From the NCBI GenBank assembly GCA_963750165.1, contig CAVVPN010000011.1:1600001-1664000 (forward strand): 64,000 nt of DNA, written 5' to 3'. Source of the stretch: an uncultured Gemmataceae bacterium. GTDB lineage: Bacteria; Planctomycetota; Planctomycetia; Gemmatales; Gemmataceae. The notes under the pieces are model-generated. The model was not told the DNA's origin, ran no database searches, and saw only the letters and a program-made list of their open reading frames with translations. Of the stretch, positions 8,499-18,931 are shown in pieces (positions within the stretch are counted from its first letter, which is position 1; each line of letters starts with the position of its first letter). The position numbers were made by a program, and so were the translations under genes.

Positions 8499-8700
8499 GG
8501 TAACCCCCCTTGAGTGAGAAAGCGAAAAGCGGACGAATGACGCGATACTATACCGCGACATCGTGGTAAGGATTAACAACCGGGTAGCCGGGCGGCCTGC
8601 GACCCACACAATTTGGGAGAGTGATATGAGATTACGGCGTAGGCAGCGGTCCCGTCAACTGAAAAAACAATTAAAATATCGGACGGGTCAAGTCACTCCT

Positions 8701-8750
8701 GTGAGGTCCGCAACGTCTCGAATTCCAGTGAGATCCGCAACGTCTCGAAT
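8701..8750. repeat. Two 23-bp direct repeats (27-bp period) in a divergent promoter region
   Basis: gtgaggtccgcaacgtctcgaat / gtgagatccgcaacgtctcgaat. Confidence 0.8.
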
Positions 8751-8808
8751 GGCGGCCGGGGTGTGCCTTCCGTATACTGGCGCACGAGGTTTTAATCAGG
8801 AGATAACC

Positions 8809-9165
8809 ATGCCAACGACTGACCCCGGCTACCTGATCCGCCGCCTGCAGGACGCCCCGACGGTGCCGTGCCCCTGCGGTCAGAGCACGCGGCCGCTGAC
8901 CCGCGCCGACACGCCGGTCTGCAACCTGCACGTCACCAGCATCACCGATTCGCAGCGCCACTACCACAAGGAATGCACCGAGGTGTATTACGTGCTGGAG
9001 GGCCGCGGTCACATGGAGCTGAACGGCGAGGTCGTGGATGTGGAGCCGGGCACGGTCATCTACATCGAGCCGTACACGCGGCACCGGCTCTGGAGCGCCG
9101 AGGGGGTGCGCATCGTCCTGGTCGGCATGCCGGCCCTGCGGCCGGACGACGAGTATTTCGATTGA
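8809..9165 (+). CDS. Cupin domain protein
   Basis: HYHKECTEVYYVLEG...IEPYTRH cupin motif; CPCG; AGGAG RBS. Confidence 0.85.
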   Translation: MPTTDPGYLIRRLQDAPTVPCPCGQSTRPLTRADTPVCNLHVTSITDSQRHYHKECTEVYYVLEGRGHMELNGEVVDVEPGTVIYIEPYTRHRLWSAEGVRIVLVGMPALRPDDEYFD

Positions 9166-9338
9166 CCGGGCACCGGAGGCCCCCTTCCCCGTGCCGGAAA
9201 CCTATCGCTGGCTCTGGCTGTATCCCGAGGGTGGCGGTACGCTGGCTGGTGATCGCCGTCGGCTTCGGCAGGGCGGGCGACTACTTTTGGCCCCGCCTGG
9301 CCGGCCCGTAAGGTACTTCGCCCGGCGGAGGACGCCAC

Positions 9339-12300
9339 ATGAACGCGGGCAACTGGGACGTGGTCGTCGTGGGGGCAGGGGCGGCAGGACTGGCGGCGGC
9401 CATCGGCCTGGCGCGACAGGGGTTGGCCGTGGCCGTACTTGAGGCGGCCGCGTTCCCCGGCGCCGAGAACTGGTCCGGCTGCGTCTACTTCGCCGAGAAT
9501 TTGGCCGACGAGCGGCTGCTGGGCCGCGCAGGCGTCGAGGCGCTGGCGTGGGAGCGGCGGTTGGTGGAGCGCGGCTTCTTCGCCACCGACGGCCACGGTT
9601 TGCTGGGGATGACCTACCGCGACGCGGCCGCCTTCCGCCACTGCTACACCGTCCTGCGACCCGTCTACGACCACCACCTCGCCCAGGCCGCCGTCAAGCA
9701 CGGGGCGGCGCTGCTGACGGCGACGACCGCCGAGAGCCTGATCCGCGACCACGGCCGCGTCGTTGGCGTCTGCACCAACCGCGGCCCGCTGTACGCCAAT
9801 TTGATCTTTCTCGCCGAGGGCGACGCCTCGCATCTGGTGACGCGCGAGGGCTACGAGCGCTCCGCCGACCCGAAAGAGGCGCCAAAATTTTTGCAGGGCA
9901 TCAAGCAGGTGCTGGAACTGCCACCGCGGGCGGTGGAGCAGCGCTTCGGCGTCGGCCCGGAGGAGGGAATCGCTTACGAGATACTGCTGCGCAACGGCAC
10001 GCTGCGCGGCCGGCCGGTCCACCTGAACATGGGCGGCTTTTTGTATGCGAACCGGCAAAGCCTGTCGATCGGCCTGGTGCTGCCGGCGGATCATCTGGCC
10101 GAGCACTTCGACGGCGACCCGAACTTGCTGATGGAGTGGTTCGAGGGCCTGCCGGCGCTGCGGCCGTGGTTCGCGGAGGGCCGCCGCGGCGCGTTCGGGG
10201 CCAAGCTGATCCGCGGCGGCGGCGCGAAGGACGTGCCCACGCTGATCGACGACGGCCTGGCCATCGGCGGCGCCGCCAGCGCCATCGGCATTGACTTCCC
10301 GTACCCGAACTTCACCGGCCCGGCGACGGCGATGGGCCTGCTGCTCGCCGAGGCCGTCCGCACGATTCGCGACGCGGGCGGCAGCTTCAGCCGCGAGGAA
10401 CTGCGCCGCCATTACCTGACGCCGCTGCAACAGACGCACTACTGGCGCGACGTGGAGTTCCTGCGGCGCTGGCCGGCTTATGTCAAGAAGACGCAGGTGT
10501 TTTTCGGCCGCAATATCGACCTGTCGCTGGGCAGCGCCTACGTCTGGACGCGCTCGGACCGTGGCACGCTGCAACGCTGGGCGGATTGGCTGCGCCTGGT
10601 GCGCGGCGCGGCAGACCCGGAGATGCAGCGCGACGCGGCCGAGTTGCAGCAGGCGCTGAACGTGCGCGACGTGGTGCGGCGGCCGCCGTGGCTGCGGTTG
10701 CTGCTGGATGGGACGCTGAACGCCTTTCGTGACGTGCTGGGCCGGCCGCGCGACGTGCCGCAGGCGGGCGACGTGCAGCTGCACTACAGCGTCGGCGGAG
10801 GTGCGGAGCCGGGCGGACTGCCGCCGGCGGCGCTGCGCGGCTGGTTCGCGCGCTTCGCCCCGGCGCTGGCGGCCGCGGCGCGGGTCGTTTACGCGAACGA
10901 TGACACCCCCCTGTCACAGAAACTGCCGCGGGCGGTCGAGCTGCTGACGCGGCAGGTGAGCCTTATCGACCTTTTCCAGCTAATGGGGTTCGGTCTGCCG
11001 GGGGCATTCATGGCCGCCCTGGAGCGTTGGCGGGGCCGGGGCGCTGCTACCGACGGGCCGCACGCTGACTACGCGCTAGCCGCCGCGAAAGCGAGCGACC
11101 TGACGCCGGCGCTGGGGCCGGCCGCCCAGCACTGGGAGGCGCGGCTGGCGCAGCTGGGCTACGACACGGCGCGGCAGTCGCACATCCACGTGCTGTGGCC
11201 GCAGGCGCTGGAGAACACCCAGGACGTGACGCGTGCCGGCCTGTGGCACGTCTGCCCGGCGCACGTCTATGAGGCGCGCGTCAGTCCGACCGGCCAGCTG
11301 CAAATCGTCGTCAACTTCGAGAACTGCATCAAGTGCGAGACGTGCTGGCGGACCAGTGACATCGTCGATTGGGGCCGTGACGGCAAGCAGCGTTTCGTCT
11401 ACGCGGTGCGGACGCCGGTGGTGCGCCAGGTGATCGCCGCCCAGGACGAGGCGGGGTTGGCCGTCGCCCACGCGCCGCGCGCCGGCGACCGCTGGGAGCA
11501 GGAAATCGCGGCCCTGGCGGAGCAACCCGAGGCGAAAGCGGGCGCGTCGGTGCGCGCCGAGCAGGTCGCGCTGGCCGAGGCGGCGGAACTGGTGGAGCGG
11601 TTGGAGCGCAAATTGATTGACTTCGACGAGGCGCTGGCGCGAGAGCCGCGCATCATCGACCGCGCCCGCACCGAGTACCTGGTGCTGCTCGCCAACCACG
11701 CTCAGCAGCAGGCGGCCCGGTTGGTCGCGGTCGTGGAGGGCTGCAAGCTGGGCACCGCGGTGCGCGAGCGGCTGCTGGACCTGGCACGCGGGACGCTGAT
11801 CCGGGCCGAGCGGCGCACGCGTGAGGCGGCGCGGCAGCGCTTTGCCTGGGCCGCCGCGGACGGCCGGCAGCTGCGGCAGCATCACTTGATGGGACTGCGG
11901 CGTTACCTGGAATGGTTGCGGCAGGGTCACGCGGCGGACGCGGCGGATGACCCGCTGCAACCGTGGCTGGCCGCCGAGGCGAACGCGGATCGAGCCGGGC
12001 AACTCGCGGAGTTGCGGCGGCGCCTGGACGCGGTGTTTCCCGCCGGCGTCTGGCGCGACCTGGAGCAGCAGAAGCCGTTGACCGACGAACAGGACGCGCT
12101 ACTGCGGCAGTTGCTGGCCGAAGTGCCGGCCCCGGAGTCGAGTGATCCGATGGCGCGGCACCTGTTGCTCGCGGAACTCGGCTGCCGGAACCCGTCCCTG
12201 GCGTACCGGGTAGCCTCCCATTTGTGGGCGCGTGACCTGGCGCTGTTGCTAGGCGGGCCGGCGCTGGCGGCGGCGGCCGACCGCTGGGCGCGCGGCGAGG

Positions 12301-15300
12301 AATGGGCGTGCTTCGTGCCGCTGGCCGCGAACGCCGGTCAGCAAGAAGCGCTGCTGGTGCCGGCCCGCGCTGCCGACCACCTGTTGCTTTGGTCCGGTCT
12401 GCGGCTGCTGCTGACCGCGGCGGACGGGGCGGCCGTTCGCGTGGAACCGCTGCCTTCGCTGGGACTGCGCGGCGCCGACCTGGCGCGGGTGGCGCTCCGC
12501 GACGCCACCGCCGTGGAAGCCGCGACCGTCGTGGCCCCGAATCGGATCGAGTTGCTGTTCGCCGCCGTCAGCAGCGCGGACCTGATCGCCATTGCGGCCG
12601 GCATGGCGGACGTGCTTTGCGAGCGCTCGATCGCGCACGCCACCAGTCGCGTGCAGTTCCCCGGCCTGTTCCACGACGAGGACGCCCGCGACGCCATCGG
12701 CAAGTTCGGCGCGGTCAAGAAGATGATCGCGGACATGACGGCCGGGCGCTACGTGCTGGAGACGTTCTGTCGCGCCCCGCCCCCGACGCGAATCAGGAGG
12801 TGGAGGCGGCGGCGCGGTGGGACTTGCTCAAGGCGGTGGCCGCGGAGGTGCTGGGCACGGCGCCCGGCAGCGTCAGCTACAACGCCGGCCAGGTCTTCGG
12901 CGGCACCGGCTATTCCGAGGACGACATCCTGAGCAAGTATTACCGCGACGCCGCGGCCTGGCGCTTCCTGGGCAGCGACAACGGGACCGTCTGGCGTGAG
13001 CACGGCCGTTTCCTGCTCGAAACCTGGGCGCATGTCGGACAGCCCCTGAGCCAGCTGGAGGACGAGGCCCGCCTGTTCGAGGCGGTCGCCCAGCGACAGA
13101 CGCTGCAGGCGGAACTGGACGCGCTGCACCTCGGCACCGCGCGCGTCCGCGACCTCGTTACCACGTGGCTCGGGGCCGCGGCGCGGCCGGACGACGCCGA
13201 CACCGCGGAGTTCCGCACCGCCCTCGGTCGTGCAGACGCTCTGTTGCTGTCCGCGAAAATGCTGCTGGTGCGGACGCACGCACGCCTGGAGCGCGGCGGC
13301 GACAACGCGGCGGCGGTCGCCCTGCTGCGCGTCTGGGTGGAGAAGGTGACCGCGGCGCTCGATGACTTCGAGGCGACGGTGCGCCGCCACCTCGACCGCC
13401 GCGGCTTCGACCTGCGGCAACCGCTGCCCGTCAACGGCGCCGCCGTCGTCGCGCACTACGACCAACTGCTGCAGCAGCCCAACCCCTACGACTCCGGCGA
13501 CTTCCTCACGAAGCCCGTCAACCTGCACGCGCCGCGCTTCGTGCCGGACCTGATCGCGACCGACCCCGTTCTAACGCAATGGCACGAGGAACTGCGGACG
13601 CTGTTTCAGCGGCAGTTCGGCCAGCCGCGCGACGGGATGATCTATGAGCGCTACCTGGAGGAGCGGCACCGGCCGGACGCGGACGACCTGGAATTTCTGC
13701 GGCGGCACGGCTTCTTCCGTATGCCGATTCCGCGCGCTCTCGGCGGCGAGGGCCGCGGCAAGGCCGACTACTACCTGCTGACGACGACCGCGCACCGCCT
13801 CGCCGACGGGGCCATTTCGCTGACGATCCAGGTCAACAGCAGCCTCGGCACCACGCCCGTGCTGCTGCCGCGCGACAAGGACTTGCCGAAAGCGCAGCAG
13901 GATGTGGCCGCGTTTGCCGCCGACGCCGCGCTGCAGAGCGACGTGCGACTCGGTCTGGAACAGCTGGCCCGGCAGGCGGAGGCCGGCCCATCGCCGCTGC
14001 TGGCGCCGGCCGTGCAGGCGCTGCAAAAACGGCTGGACGAGGGCGGCACCAACAAGCCGGCCCTGCGTGTGCTCTGCCACCGCTTCACTGCATCGTGGCA
14101 GGAGGCCGGCCGCGCTCTCAAGGCGCTCGACGGCCCCACCCTGACGGCCCGGTTGCGCAAAGCGCTGGACGGCTGGCGGCAGGCGTGCGAGCGGGCCGCG
14201 GCGTATCAGCAGGAACTCGGCCTGCGCCTGGAGGCGGCGGACCTGTTCCTGCGCTGGGTCGCCAGCGGCCAGATTTCCGCGTTCGCGCTGACGGAGCCGA
14301 CCGCCGGCTCTGATACCGCCCGCGTCGCCACACGCGCCCGGCCGCGCTCCGTGCCGCTGGAACGCGACTCCGAAGGCGTCTACCGCTTCATGCCCGCCAG
14401 CGGTAAGGAATCGCGTATCCTGCTGGACGCCCGCCGCCTCGACTTCCGCACCGGCGCCGACGGGGAGTACCGCGCCCACTATCGCTGGTCCGACGCCGCC
14501 GAGCCGGCACTCATTCACTTTGACGAATATGATTATGAGACCGACGATCCGCACAAACTCCGCTATTTCGAGCGCAACGGCGAGCGCGTCTACTTCCACG
14601 ACATCGCCATCCTGCGCGACCGCGGCGGCCGGCTGTGGTACGACTACTGGGAGCTGACCGGCGCCAAGATGTGGATCACCAACGGCCGCGTCTGCGGCAT
14701 CATGTGCCTGTACGCCAAGACCGACGACGGCGTGACCGGCTTCATCGTGGACCGTCACGCCGAGGGCCTGGTCGTCGGCAAGGACGAGGCCAAGATGGGC
14801 CAGTTCGGTTCGCCGACCAATGAACTGGCGCTGATGGCAGTGCGCGTGCCGCTGGAGAACGTCATCGGTCTGGAGGGCCGCGGTCAGGTCAACGCCCTGG
14901 AGACGCTGAACGTCGGCCGCACCGGCATCGCCATGTCCGCGATGTCGCAGATGAGCCGGCTGCTGGAGTTTTGCAGGGATTTCCTGGACGAGCGCGGCCG
15001 TGAGGTGCCGGACTGGGCGGCGTGGCGGCTGCAGGAAATGGAGGAGGCACGCTTCATCGCCGAGGCGGTGTCGTGGGGCCTGGTCGGCCGGCTGGAGCAC
15101 AAGCAGACGAAGTCCGTGCGTGTCGAGTCGGCTGCGGCGAAGATGCTGGTGAGCGAGCTGTACCACAAGGCGATCGAGACGGCTGAGGAGATTTTCGGCC
15201 TGGCGGGCCAGACACAGGAGCACCTGATTGAGAAGCGCAAGCGCGACGCCCGCATCCTCAATATTTACGAGGGCACCAACGAGATTCAGCGCTTCCTGAT

Positions 15301-17683
15301 CCTGCGCGACCTCGTGGGCGACCTGGTGGCGCGCTGGCAGGGCGTCGCTCCGACGGCAACGCTGACGCCGGGCGAGCAGGCGCTGGAAACGCTCAAGGCG
15401 GAAGTGCGACAGCGCGTCGAGGCGGCCCTGGCGCTCTTCGGACAGCAGCTGTGGCAGAATCCAAACCTGCAGGCGAGCTGTTTCCTACTCTCCGAGGCAG
15501 TGGCGTGGGTCGCCGCCCAGGACGCCACGCTGGCGCGCGTGACCTGGCTCAGCGGCCGCGCCGCCCAGGACGCCATGCTGCTGCCAGGTATCGAAACGGG
15601 CCGGCGGGCGCTGACGCGCTGTGCCCTGGAAGCCCGCAATCGCCTGCGCCGCTTCGACGGCCGACTGGCGCTGCTGCGCCGCGGCATCTACGACCCGGCC
15701 GTCCGCGCCGCTAGTGTGCTCTTCCAGGACGCGGCCGAACCCAAGGCGGCGATCGCGCCCGTGGGGAGCATGATTGACAGACCGCTGTCACTGCTGGTCG
15801 TACTGGACGCGCCGGAGGCCGGGGCACCACAGCCGCACGTCGCCGACGGCCAGTTGCTCGAAGCGTACCGCGTGTTCACCGAGGCGGATCGGGCGGCGCT
15901 GGAGACGGCTCTGCGATTGCGCGACCGGACGGACGTGGCGGTATCTATCCAGGCCGCCACGGTGGCGCCGCGGGCCGCCGGGTTGCTGTTGCGTGAGGTG
16001 CTGAGCCTGGGCGTGGAGCGCGTCCTGCTGGTCGAGGCACCCGGGCCAGTGCCGCCGGACCAGGCCGCAGTGGCGCTGGCGGCGGTGCTGCGTGGGGGGC
16101 CGGCGTTTGACCTGATCCTGAGCGGCAACGGCGGCCAGGGTGACGAGGGCTTGCTCGGCCGACTCACCGCGGAGGCGCTGGGCGTGCCCTGCTGTGGTGG
16201 CGTCGCCCAGGTGGCGGTGCAGGCGGACGCGCAACAGGCAGTCGCACTGCTCGTCAGCGCCGACGGTCGCCAGCGCCGCCAGCGCACTTGCCGGCTGCCG
16301 TCGCGGTCGAGTCGGGGACGCCGCTACGGCCGTTCACAGCGGCCCAGTTTCAGAGCAACCTGGAACGCGGCGTCGAGGCGCGCCCGTGGCCGGCGGCAGT
16401 CCCGGCGACGCCAGTCGTCTTCGAGCCGGAGGAACGCCAGACGGCCGCCGCTGCGGAGCAGCCAGCCCAGCTGCTGCCGCACGAGGCCGGCCATTTCCTG
16501 CTGCAAGCGCTCGGCGTGCGCACCGCCAGTGCGCACGCCAACGGCAGCGCCGCCCCGGCCGCGGTGACCGTGCGCGACGTGGACCGGCCGGCGTTCACCG
16601 GCGACGCGGCCGGCGTGGTGGCGGTGCTGGCGACGGATGCCGCGGGCAACCTGCGACCGAGCGCGGCGCGGACGCTGGAGGCAGCGCATTTCGTCGGCGG
16701 TTTCGTGCCGGCTGACGCTCGCCGAACCGCCCTGCTGCTGGCTGGCGGCGACGCGGCGGCACAACAACGGGCGCTGGCGGAGTTGGCGAAACAATGGCCG
16801 TATGACCTGTGCCTGGTGCCGGCCGCGGAGGCGGGGGCTTCCGACGAGGTGCTGGCCCGGCTGCTGGCGGACGCGTGGGCCGGCCTGGGTGCCCGCCCCG
16901 CCGCGGTGGTCGGCGAGCCGTGGGCGGAGGCGGCGCTAGCCCGGCTGGCGGCCCCGGCCGGCGACAACGCCGCGCTGCGCGTCCGCGCCCTGGGCCGTCA
17001 CGAAGGCCAGTTAGTGGCCGAGACGAGCCGGCAGCGGGGCAAGTACCGCGCCCGCCGGACGCTGACGCCCACCGCCGGCCATACATGCTGGATCGGTCTG
17101 GCGGCCGAGGCGGACGTGGGCGCGGCCAGCCCCCCGGCGGCACCGGCGGCGCGGCGCGTCGAGCGCCGGGCGCCGCAGCCTGGTGCGCACTTTCTTCGGC
17201 AAGGCGGACGTGCGGCGGCTGCTGGAGGAGCTGAAGCAGGACACCGGCCTGGCGCGGCTGACGGACGCGGAGTTCATCATCGACGTGGGCTTCGGCGTCG
17301 GCAACCGCGACGGCTATGAAGAAGTGATCGAGCCGCTGGAGCGGGCACTGCGGCGGCTGGGCGTGCGCGGCCTGGTGGTCGGCGGCTCGCGCAAGGTGAC
17401 GGAGGAACTGCATCTGTTACCGCTGGACCGGCAGATCGGCCAGTCCGGCGTCAGCGTCAATCCGGGCGTGCTGCTGGCGGTCGGCGTCAGCGGGGCGCCG
17501 CAGCACCTCAACTACATCGGGCCGCGGGCAACGGTGATCGCCTTCAACCGCGACCCGGACGCGCCGTTGATGACGCTCAACCAGCGCCAGCCGCGGCCGC
17601 GCGTCTATCCGGTGCTCGGCGACCTGTTCGAGACGGTGCCGGCGTTTGTCGCGGCGCTGGAGGATGAAGGGGTGAGAGGATGA
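9339..17683 (+). CDS. Giant fusion: FixC-like FAD oxidoreductase + FixX-like ferredoxin + two acyl-CoA dehydrogenase modules + ETF beta + ETF alpha; three frameshifts (~12780, ~16285, ~17190)
   Basis: DVVVVGAGAAG; VCPAHVYE..NFENCIKCETC; SRVQF..AVKKMIADM; GQVFGGTGY; AFALTEPTAGSD; GAKMWITNG; IYEGTNEIQR; DRAALETALRLR; DAEFIIDVGFG..QIGQSG..VGVSGAPQH. Pieces are ORFs 9339-12932, 12302-16567, 16288-17319 and 17183-17683. Confidence 0.8.
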
Positions 17684-17837: not shown

Positions 17838-18931
17838 ATGAATGTGAGGACTCTGATGCCGCACCGTGTTTCGTGGATCTGCACCAGCCTGGCCGGCTTG
17901 CTGACGGCCGTGGTGGTGCTGGGAACGCTGCCGTTCGCCGCGGCCCAGCCCGACAAACCCAAGACGCCCCTGTGGACGCACGCCTTCAACCTGAAGTGCC
18001 GCAACAGCAAGGAGACCGGCGGCTTCTCTGACAAGACGCGCGTCTACGGCATGGAGGTCTTCAAGGACGAGAACACGAACCTGGGTATTTACCTGCTGGA
18101 GACCGGCTCGCTCGGCGTCACCTCTGGCGGCTTCGGCGACATCAAGGTGGCTATCAAGGACAGCAAGGCGCTGACCTGGATGCACGCCATGGACGTCAAG
18201 GTACGCAAGACCGGTGAGGACAAGTTCACCGAAAACACGCAGGTGCTGACCATCGAGGTCTACAGGGACGACAACACCGGCAACTGGGTGTACATCTCCG
18301 AGAAGGGCTACATCGCCATCGTGCCAGGCGCCTCGAAGACCGGCACCGCGCCGACGCCGGGGCGCGCGGCCCGGTGTGGATGCACGGCCTCGATCTCAAG
18401 TGTCGCAAGGGCGGCGTCAAGACCTGGGACAACGACACCAAGAACTGGAGCATGGAAATCTTCCGGGACGAGAACACCGGCTTCCTGATCTACATCGTCG
18501 AGAACGGCGCCCTCTCCGTGGTGCCTGGCTTCGACACCGCGCCGTCGCCGACGCCCAAGAGCCAGGCTCCGCAGTGGATGCACGGCCTCGATCTCAAGTG
18601 CCGCAAGGGCGGCGTCAAGAACTTTGAGAAGACGACGCAGGTCTTCGGCCTGGAGCTGTTCCGCGACGCCAACAACGCCAACTACATTTACCTCTCGGAG
18701 GTTGGCTCCATTGCGGTGGTGCGCGGCGACAAGGATGTCAAGGCGCCGACAGCCAAGCCGGCCGAGCCCGAGTGGAAGCACGGCCTGGACCTGAAGTGCC
18801 GCAAGTTCGACGAACCGGCCTTCTCCGAACGCACGCACATCTACGGCGTCGAGGTGTTCAGCGACCCGAACACGCGCGCGCTCCTGTACATCGACGACCT
18901 GGGCTACATCGCGGCCGTCGCGGCGAAGTGA
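17838..18931 (+). CDS. Exported protein with five ~65-aa tandem repeats; frameshift near 18365
   Basis: Signal peptide; repeat W.H.(L)DLKCRK....F...T..(Y)G.E.F.D.NT...IY..E.G spans ORFs 17838-18488 and 18374-18931. Confidence 0.8.

Follow-up and report, generated by a model that had tools for sequence, protein, structure and literature searches.

INTRODUCTION

An acyl-CoA dehydrogenase (ACAD), an electron-transferring flavoprotein (ETF), and a quinone-reductase module are normally separate proteins, and to our knowledge the chain that they form is known only as transient complexes of these separate proteins. Here we describe a locus at positions 9339 to 17683 of a 64,000-nucleotide stretch of DNA from an uncultured Gemmataceae bacterium (contig CAVVPN010000011.1, positions 1,600,001 to 1,664,000; the window) in which all three parts read as one polypeptide. 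We concluded, with a probability of about 0.72, that this single chain is a non-bifurcating acyl-CoA:menaquinone oxidoreductase of beta-oxidation and that assembly errors are the likely cause of this copy's three frame breaks.

The canonical chain is represented by very-long-chain ACAD (VLCAD; 2uxw), the complex of medium-chain ACAD (MCAD) with ETF (2a1t/1t9g), ETF (1efv), and ETF:quinone oxidoreductase (ETF-QO; 2gmh). The fusion shares with it the folds, the cofactor ligands, one four-Cys cluster, and the position of the Glu base. It differs in being one chain, in having a pseudo-dimer dehydrogenase with one site, a FixC-like quinone module, and two insertions in its second ACAD, and in lacking the AMP-loop signature in EtfB. 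Heteromeric ACADs carry one FAD per pair, and FadE34 is built in tandem. Two unlike ACAD folds that form one working unit are described for the alpha2beta2 enzymes ChsE1-ChsE2 and ChsE4-ChsE5 (PMC6678751). Unlike these enzymes and FadE34, the fusion has VLCAD-type C-terminal domains and no steroid context and is joined to ETF and FixCX.

Among solved structures, the nearest relative of the fusion's N-terminal FAD domain is in the Fix/EtfABCX complex of Thermotoga maritima (7koe; PMC13158604), which likewise combines ETF, a ferredoxin, and a menaquinone reductase in one assembly and whose EtfC is described as reducing menaquinone (PMC13158604). That complex is described as lacking an ACAD and as consisting of four subunits, with two clusters and with NADH entering at a bifurcating FAD (PMC13158604), whereas the fusion has one chain, ACAD entry, one cluster, and no bifurcating signature. 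EtfB followed by EtfA in one chain is found in Sulfolobus acidocaldarius; in contrast to the fusion, that protein is reported to bifurcate and is described without its donor and acceptor enzymes (PMC12042025). Mycobacterial EtfD also links beta-oxidation to menaquinone through ETF, but it is described as nonhomologous to ETF-QO, with heme b and several clusters, in a system of separate proteins (PMC13083937). Our literature searches, which did not cover subscription papers, found no description of an ACAD-ETF-FixCX fusion. The chemistry is known, and the architecture is undescribed.

RESULTS

Relatives carry the whole chain in one reading frame

The window is part of a 2.35-Mb contig in a 9.6-Mb genome whose close relatives are labelled Gemmataceae or Gemmatales. 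Four overlapping plus-strand frames cover the locus (9339-12932, 12236/12302-16567, 16144-17319, and 17066-17683), as the sequence-only reading had reported. Bridging three single-base breaks gave a read-through of 2,781 amino acids (~303 kDa) with zero in-frame stops and the domain order FixC, FixX, ACAD1, ACAD2, EtfB, EtfA; residues are numbered in this read-through. The features are as follows.

9339..17683, plus strand: whole fused gene, 2,781 amino acids via read-through of three single-base breaks
9339..10523, plus strand: FixC/EtfC-type FAD domain, predicted quinone reductase (residues 1-395; 7koe_C, E 5.6e-33; ETF-QO 2gmh, E 1.9e-07)
10524..11138, plus strand: basic, Trp-rich, amphipathic extension, predicted membrane-surface anchor from its composition (residues 396-600)
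11139..11438, plus strand: FixX/ETF-QO-type ferredoxin (PF05187; Cys 639, 663, 666, and 669)
11439..11948, plus strand: weakly conserved linker, predicted helical from sequence, kept in shortened relatives (residues 701-870)
11949..13402, plus strand: ACAD1 with VLCAD-type C-terminal helical domain (residues 871-1355; hhalign 99.7% over 342 columns; VLCAD-like model)
13475..15322, plus strand: ACAD2, predicted catalytic dehydrogenase (residues 1380-1995; Glu1978; two insertions; model like short-chain ACAD [SCAD])
15323..15727, plus strand: second helical C-terminal domain, likely VLCAD-type (residues 1996-2130; helical in the model; Foldseek)
15770..16386, plus strand: EtfB (domain III), fold kept, nucleotide-binding loop variable, break 2 inside
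16579..17181, plus strand: EtfA domain I, the least conserved domain
17186..17683, plus strand: EtfA domain II and stop, with the electron-transfer FAD site (PF00766, E 7e-16)
12780..12797 (approximate), plus strand: frame break 1, one base short, by switch-point scoring; C4 run at 12775, C5 run at 12780
~16280-16288, plus strand: frame break 2, one base short, by switch-point scoring
17182..17222, plus strand: frame break 3, with one extra base, placed by switch-point scoring in the linker ahead of EtfA domain II

The break positions are the switch points scored against a profile of 120 relatives, and third-position GC changes frame near 12780, 16260-16380, and 17200. The three points lie in the C-terminal helices of ACAD1, late in EtfB, and in the linker joining EtfA domains I and II, that is, within domains or an interdomain linker and not at gene-like boundaries, as had been claimed from the sequence alone. 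Pfam matched FAD-oxidoreductase and Fer4_ETF_QO in frame 1, three ACAD domains in frame 2, and ETF_alpha in the last frame, with a PF01012 match at 15872-16231.

A search restricted to proteins longer than 2,009 amino acids found 449 relatives among 7,982 scored candidates. The best 120 of these 449 are single chains of 2,633-2,957 amino acids with 52-63% identity, and all four frame segments are covered by 119 of them. Eight related genomes carry the fusion in open frames of 2,784-2,930 codons. For residue analysis, we combined these 120 close relatives with 32 of 150 listed representatives (distant; at least 2,250 amino acids, 24-46% identity), giving 152. Among the 32 distant members, 30 span the whole series from FixC to EtfA in unchanged order, and two begin after FixC. 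The sequence-only reading had proposed a single-chain dehydrogenase-ETF-quinone reductase of ~2,780 residues and a search for homologues of that architecture; intact relatives of similar length carry the same fusion as single chains.

The two dehydrogenase copies likely share one active site

In human SCAD, the FAD site is described as drawing F152, L154, S155, G160, S161, and E396, with the base E392, from one monomer and R297, Q365, and G369 from its neighbour (PMC13027082). To map these residues onto the fusion, we used the spacing of motifs and a profile built from 78 ordinary ACADs (open reading frames from metagenome-scan loci). ACAD1 carries the neighbour-subunit set, Arg1104, Gln1185, and Gly1189, each in 152/152 relatives; its fold is complete, and it lacks the own-subunit FAD motifs and the catalytic Glu. 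ACAD2 carries the own-subunit set (Phe1649, Leu1651, Thr1652, Gly1657, Ser1658, and Glu1978, each in 152/152; Glu1982 in 150/152), with its catalytic Glu at the MCAD/SCAD position, and its neighbour-subunit residues (Arg, Gln, and Gly-Gly) are deleted or replaced. Because the two halves of the FAD site are complementary, ACAD1 and ACAD2 likely form a single active site. The "ACAD-like module" of the sequence-only reading does have the fold; the complementary residues (152/152) indicate that it is likely a partner half completing one site, not a spare copy.

We modeled ACAD1-ACAD2 of a relative (L021; 1,197 residues). The model had a predicted local distance difference test score (pLDDT) of 90.6 and a predicted template modeling score (pTM) of 0.91, and the mutual placement of the two copies is therefore confidently predicted. 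Its first half matched the whole VLCAD monomer 2uxw (Z 25.7, root mean square deviation [rmsd] 3.4, 449 residues), and its second half matched SCAD 2vig (Z 24.4, rmsd 2.2, 366 residues). Foldseek matched the ACAD model to VLCAD-type chains. We infer that a VLCAD-like dimer was fused into a pseudo-dimer with one site; the ACAD halves may also pair between two chains.

The two insertions in ACAD2 are helical (residues ~1511-1635) and beta-rich (residues ~1671-1765), and an Atlas search with the insertion region returned only generic ACAD clusters, at 0.90. Next to Arg1104, ACAD1 has a 9-residue loop insertion that is conserved in the family. Although invariant in sequence, this loop is modeled with low confidence (one of two such spots), and we suggest that it contacts the flavin or another domain.

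The quinone end and the electron-transfer domain

Both hallmarks of ETF-QO/FixCX, the FAD Rossmann domain and the four-Cys cluster domain, are present. The NCBIfam FixC model scores 131 bits versus a cut-off of 610. Each of the four Cys (639, 663, 666, and 669) is found in 152/152 relatives, and they are the predicted ligands for one [4Fe-4S] cluster, as in ETF-QO. No second [4Fe-4S] cluster of the EtfX type was found in the 152 relatives, which have only four conserved Cys. Residues 396-600 have a net charge of +6.7 and 3.7 Trp per 100 amino acids, and the most hydrophobic 19-mer of the whole chain falls at residues 542-560 (mean, 1.83); this composition is consistent with a membrane-surface anchor.

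In EtfA domain II, the residues of the electron-transfer FAD site are Arg2685, Gln2699, Ser2718, His2723, and Asn2737. Gln2699, Gly2701, Ser2718, Gly2719, and Asn2737 are found in 119/120 close and 31-32/32 distant members, and Arg2685 and His2723 are found in 11/11 loci. A model of the ETF part (pLDDT, 88; pTM, 0.72) has the three-domain ETF fold. It matched EtfB chains at an rmsd of ~3 Å and EtfA chains with domain II placed differently (17-22 Å).

Conservation is uneven: in the distant set, the share of columns that are at least 90% identical is 28% for the ACAD2 core, 19% for EtfA domain II, 1% for EtfB, and 0% for EtfA domain I. An Arg of EtfA domain I (Arg165 of R. palustris) is conserved in bifurcating and canonical ETFs. 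The candidate for it here, Arg2565, is present in 88/120 close and 12/32 distant members, by an inferred mapping in an unaligned domain. In EtfB, the signature is given as DGDTAQ for bifurcating ETFs (Thr and Gln/His each at 100% across 216 of them) and as DDDSNQ, the AMP loop, for canonical ETFs (PMC8958531). At the signature Thr position, the fusion has Glu in 86, Asp in 17, and Gln in 7 of 120 members; at the Gln position, it has Leu in 82, Val in 18, and Gln in 8. Gaps occur in this stretch in up to 15/32 distant members. AMP binding by the fusion EtfB seems doubtful from this stretch.

Shortened relatives keep the quinone end

Proteins of 1,661-1,713 amino acids keep FixC, FixX, the linker, the helical domains, and EtfB and have lost the ACAD core and EtfA; those of 1,329-1,459 amino acids have lost EtfB as well. 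They comprise the following.

L169:7471-11640, L170:7220-11242, L171:6916-10902, L172:1482-5486, and L173:3-2915: shortened derivatives with FixC-FixX and the helical domains kept and the catalytic ACAD core and ETF lost
P0212, P0221, P0226, P0260, P0228, and P0229: shortened derivatives, proteins, with the same parts kept and lost

The short form occurs in five genomes (91-97% complete) of one genus (g330), with fadB upstream in 3/5, and no ETF-alpha match was found in any of the five. The Rossmann motif and the four Cys are retained, but only 75-85 of 103 invariant FixC positions are. The ratio of nonsynonymous to synonymous substitution rates is 0.11-0.26, and the short forms are under purifying selection. 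In a FastTree phylogeny of 74 sequences rooted on the shortest distant members, all 11 shortened sequences grouped together in a single clade (support, 1.0) that branches from among the full-length Gemmatales members. Since these derived, selected forms occur in genomes with no ETF-alpha match, we suggest that FixC, FixX, the linker, and the helical domains are one structural platform with a use independent of ETF.

Distribution of the family

The labels of long or full-length members include Planctomycetota, Armatimonadota, a cluster with Gemmatimonas sp. SM23_52, and Acidiferrobacteraceae (a protein of 2,075 amino acids); among partial pieces from the N terminus, the labels are Acidobacteriota, Nitrospirota, Lentisphaeraceae, and Firestonebacteria. 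The fusion is present in 12 of 400 other Planctomycetota genomes. With a shortened member as the query, 25 of 201 genomes of the order matched, shortened forms included. When we looked among proteins of 385-1,227 amino acids for split forms that contain FixC-FixX, we obtained 93 matches, many labelled partial or on short contigs and some on long contigs; true split forms may be among them. A metagenome scan with generic patterns returned 80 ordinary ACAD loci and none of the fusion family. All NCBIfam matches listed for five proteins score under the curated cut-offs (FixC, FadE, and EtfA/B equivalogs).

Gene neighbours and ETF content

Of the 19 full-length Gemmatales loci that include upstream DNA, 10 have fadB, which encodes a hydratase and a 3-hydroxyacyl-CoA dehydrogenase, just upstream (L016, L017, L018, L021, L025, L028, L029, L030, L178, and L179; not in this window, L023, L026, L031-L035, or L177). 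These counts omit the duplicates L036, L175, L176, and L180 and loci without upstream DNA. fadA (thiolase) and fadD (acyl-CoA ligase) often accompany the upstream fadB, which in L025 is one open reading frame away. The substrate, which the sequence-only reading had left unknown, is narrowed toward beta-oxidation by these genes, which roughly half of the Gemmatales loci carry directly upstream. At L136:7898-13851 (G000:C12), a DUF1559-like pair lies between the fadD and fadB orthologues of this genome, where relatives carry fadA. A conserved gene for a ~560-amino-acid alpha/beta-hydrolase, possibly a lipase feeding the pathway, follows the fusion or short form at L017:15085-16764 and in L020, L021, L025, L169, L170, L171, L174, and L179.

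Among 41 related genomes, 16 had a single ETF-alpha match. In 14 of these, the match was of the fusion type; in 2, which lack the fusion, it was a stand-alone gene. The remaining 25 had no ETF-alpha match, yet ACAD matches were found in 39/41; the ACADs of genomes without ETF-alpha may use another acceptor. In this genome, the fusion is the only ETF match. The genome also has no fewer than three other ACADs, with three matches to the futalosine pathway and five to heme-copper oxidases.

Nearer to the gene in the window, a small cupin gene (8809-9165, same strand) lies just upstream and was not seen beside the fusion in relatives. No sigma-70-type promoter or terminator was found in 8500-9400. 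Downstream, 17838-18931 encodes a signal-peptide-like start and then ~5 repeats of 65-70 residues in two frames split near 18370, with no Pfam match above chance. It is probably a single gene with a further indel.

Frame breaks elsewhere in this genome

As a control, we used proteins from 400 kb of a relative, which matched 131 genes in this genome. Frame changes occurred in 15/131 control genes, or 0.30 breaks per 1,000 amino acids, a lower bound. In the FixC-FixX tree, the terminal branch of this copy is 0.24, versus 0.28 for its sister. Programmed frameshifting was rejected: relatives have one frame, and the breaks of other assemblies (L023 and L179) lie elsewhere. Assembly indels are the likely explanation for the three breaks seen here.

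DISCUSSION

The fusion likely works like the canonical chain of ACAD, ETF, and ETF-QO; by their sequence signatures, it would fall outside both FixABCX and the canonical ETFs. We propose that one polypeptide would wire beta-oxidation's first step into the respiratory chain. ACAD1 and ACAD2 would pair in a VLCAD-like pseudo-dimer that holds one FAD between its halves, where Glu1978 would remove the alpha proton and the FAD would accept the beta hydride. Domain II of the tethered ETF would swing from the ACAD FAD to the [4Fe-4S] cluster and deliver a single electron per trip. The cluster would reduce the FixC FAD, which in turn would reduce menaquinone at the membrane surface. The predicted content per chain is three FAD, one [4Fe-4S] cluster, and no NADH site.

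Several observations weigh against this proposal. As an acceptor for acyl-CoA oxidation, menaquinone is weak. The gene next to the fusion is not fadB in 9/19 Gemmatales loci, this one included, or in any of the 7 distant planctomycete loci that have upstream DNA. This genome has its fadD and fadB orthologues on a different contig, with fadB frameshifted, and the best fadA match reached only 41%, with no close orthologue found. At least two ETF-alpha matches were found in 10 of 12 fusion carriers outside Gemmatales, and the fusion therefore does not always replace ordinary ETF. The aligned EtfB stretch has neither the DGDTAQ nor the DDDSNQ signature, as these are given in PMC8958531, in the 120 close and 32 distant members. 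With regard to the breaks, three were found versus 0.84 expected at the assembly rate (P ~0.053 for three or more), and 22 of 742 near-invariant columns deviate in this copy versus a median of 10.5, a value as high in 6/120 relatives.

The last two points could instead mean that the family is real and functional and that this copy is a recently decayed gene whose three frameshifts are true mutations; the dispersed fad operon, with its broken fadB and no close fadA, would fit such decay. However, 2,781 codons run without an in-frame stop, none of the 22 deviations falls on the listed cofactor ligands, and the branch length is ordinary. Similar breaks affect the control genes at a rate that is a lower bound, and the next downstream gene is likewise split. 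We regard decay as unlikely and sequence error as the likelier cause.

We think it quite unlikely that the same wiring serves another use, with a branched, cyclic, or carrier-bound acyl substrate outside ordinary beta-oxidation or with reverse flow from quinol to enoyl-CoA. The fadD-fadA-fadB operons provide the other three steps of beta-oxidation and lack only an ACAD. The fold is of the VLCAD type, and among the NCBIfam ACAD models Bacillus-type FadE matches best, at a score far under its cut-off. What speaks for another use is the lack of fad neighbours in the loci noted above and the two large family-specific insertions in ACAD2. Electron flow from menaquinol to enoyl-CoA would also be roughly thermoneutral or downhill. 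Steroid side chains are described as substrates of heteromeric ACADs (PMC6678751).

An electron-bifurcating machine like FixABCX, as the sequence-only reading had allowed, would have NADH reduce a second FAD in EtfB and would split the electrons between ferredoxin and quinone or enoyl-CoA. The FixC part is indeed much nearer to Thermotoga EtfC than to ETF-QO by E value, and the top EtfB sequence matches are the bifurcating ETFs 4kpu_B and 6fah_B. Nevertheless, DGDTAQ, as defined in PMC8958531, is absent from an aligned stretch that is variable and often gapped, and without this signature bifurcation is not supported. Conservation in EtfB and EtfA domain I is among the lowest in the chain, with far fewer near-invariant columns than in domain II; there is one cluster versus the two described in EtfX (PMC13158604), and the host encodes heme-copper oxidases. 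We consider bifurcation very improbable. Four separate genes joined only through frame corrections have a negligible chance and are refuted for the family by its single-chain relatives: every frame does end at a stop in the present assembly, but the old frames continue 117-279 bases beyond the switch as nonhomologous sequence, the breaks cut domains, and 119/120 relatives hold all four parts in one chain.

Returning to a single-chain acyl-CoA:menaquinone oxidoreductase, we tentatively suggest, as a possibility that is appreciable but less likely than not, a "complex II of beta-oxidation." This would be a 300-kDa membrane-surface enzyme with a one-site pseudo-dimer dehydrogenase and a nucleotide-free ETF base, in which covalent tethers replace AMP and the partner-recognition loop. 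Its FixC-FixX-helical platform could stand apart from the dehydrogenase and the ETF, as in the derived proteins (1,330-1,390 amino acids) of the ETF-less genus, where it would let electrons reach the quinone pool independently of ETF.

A natural single-chain version would allow the ETF flavin domain to be followed from donor to acceptor in one cryo-electron microscopy or stopped-flow experiment. It would test whether ETF needs AMP and would show how acyl-CoA oxidation couples to low-potential menaquinone. Annotation is affected as well: the fusion is named in databases after one domain, and it is the only ETF found in many Gemmatales genomes.

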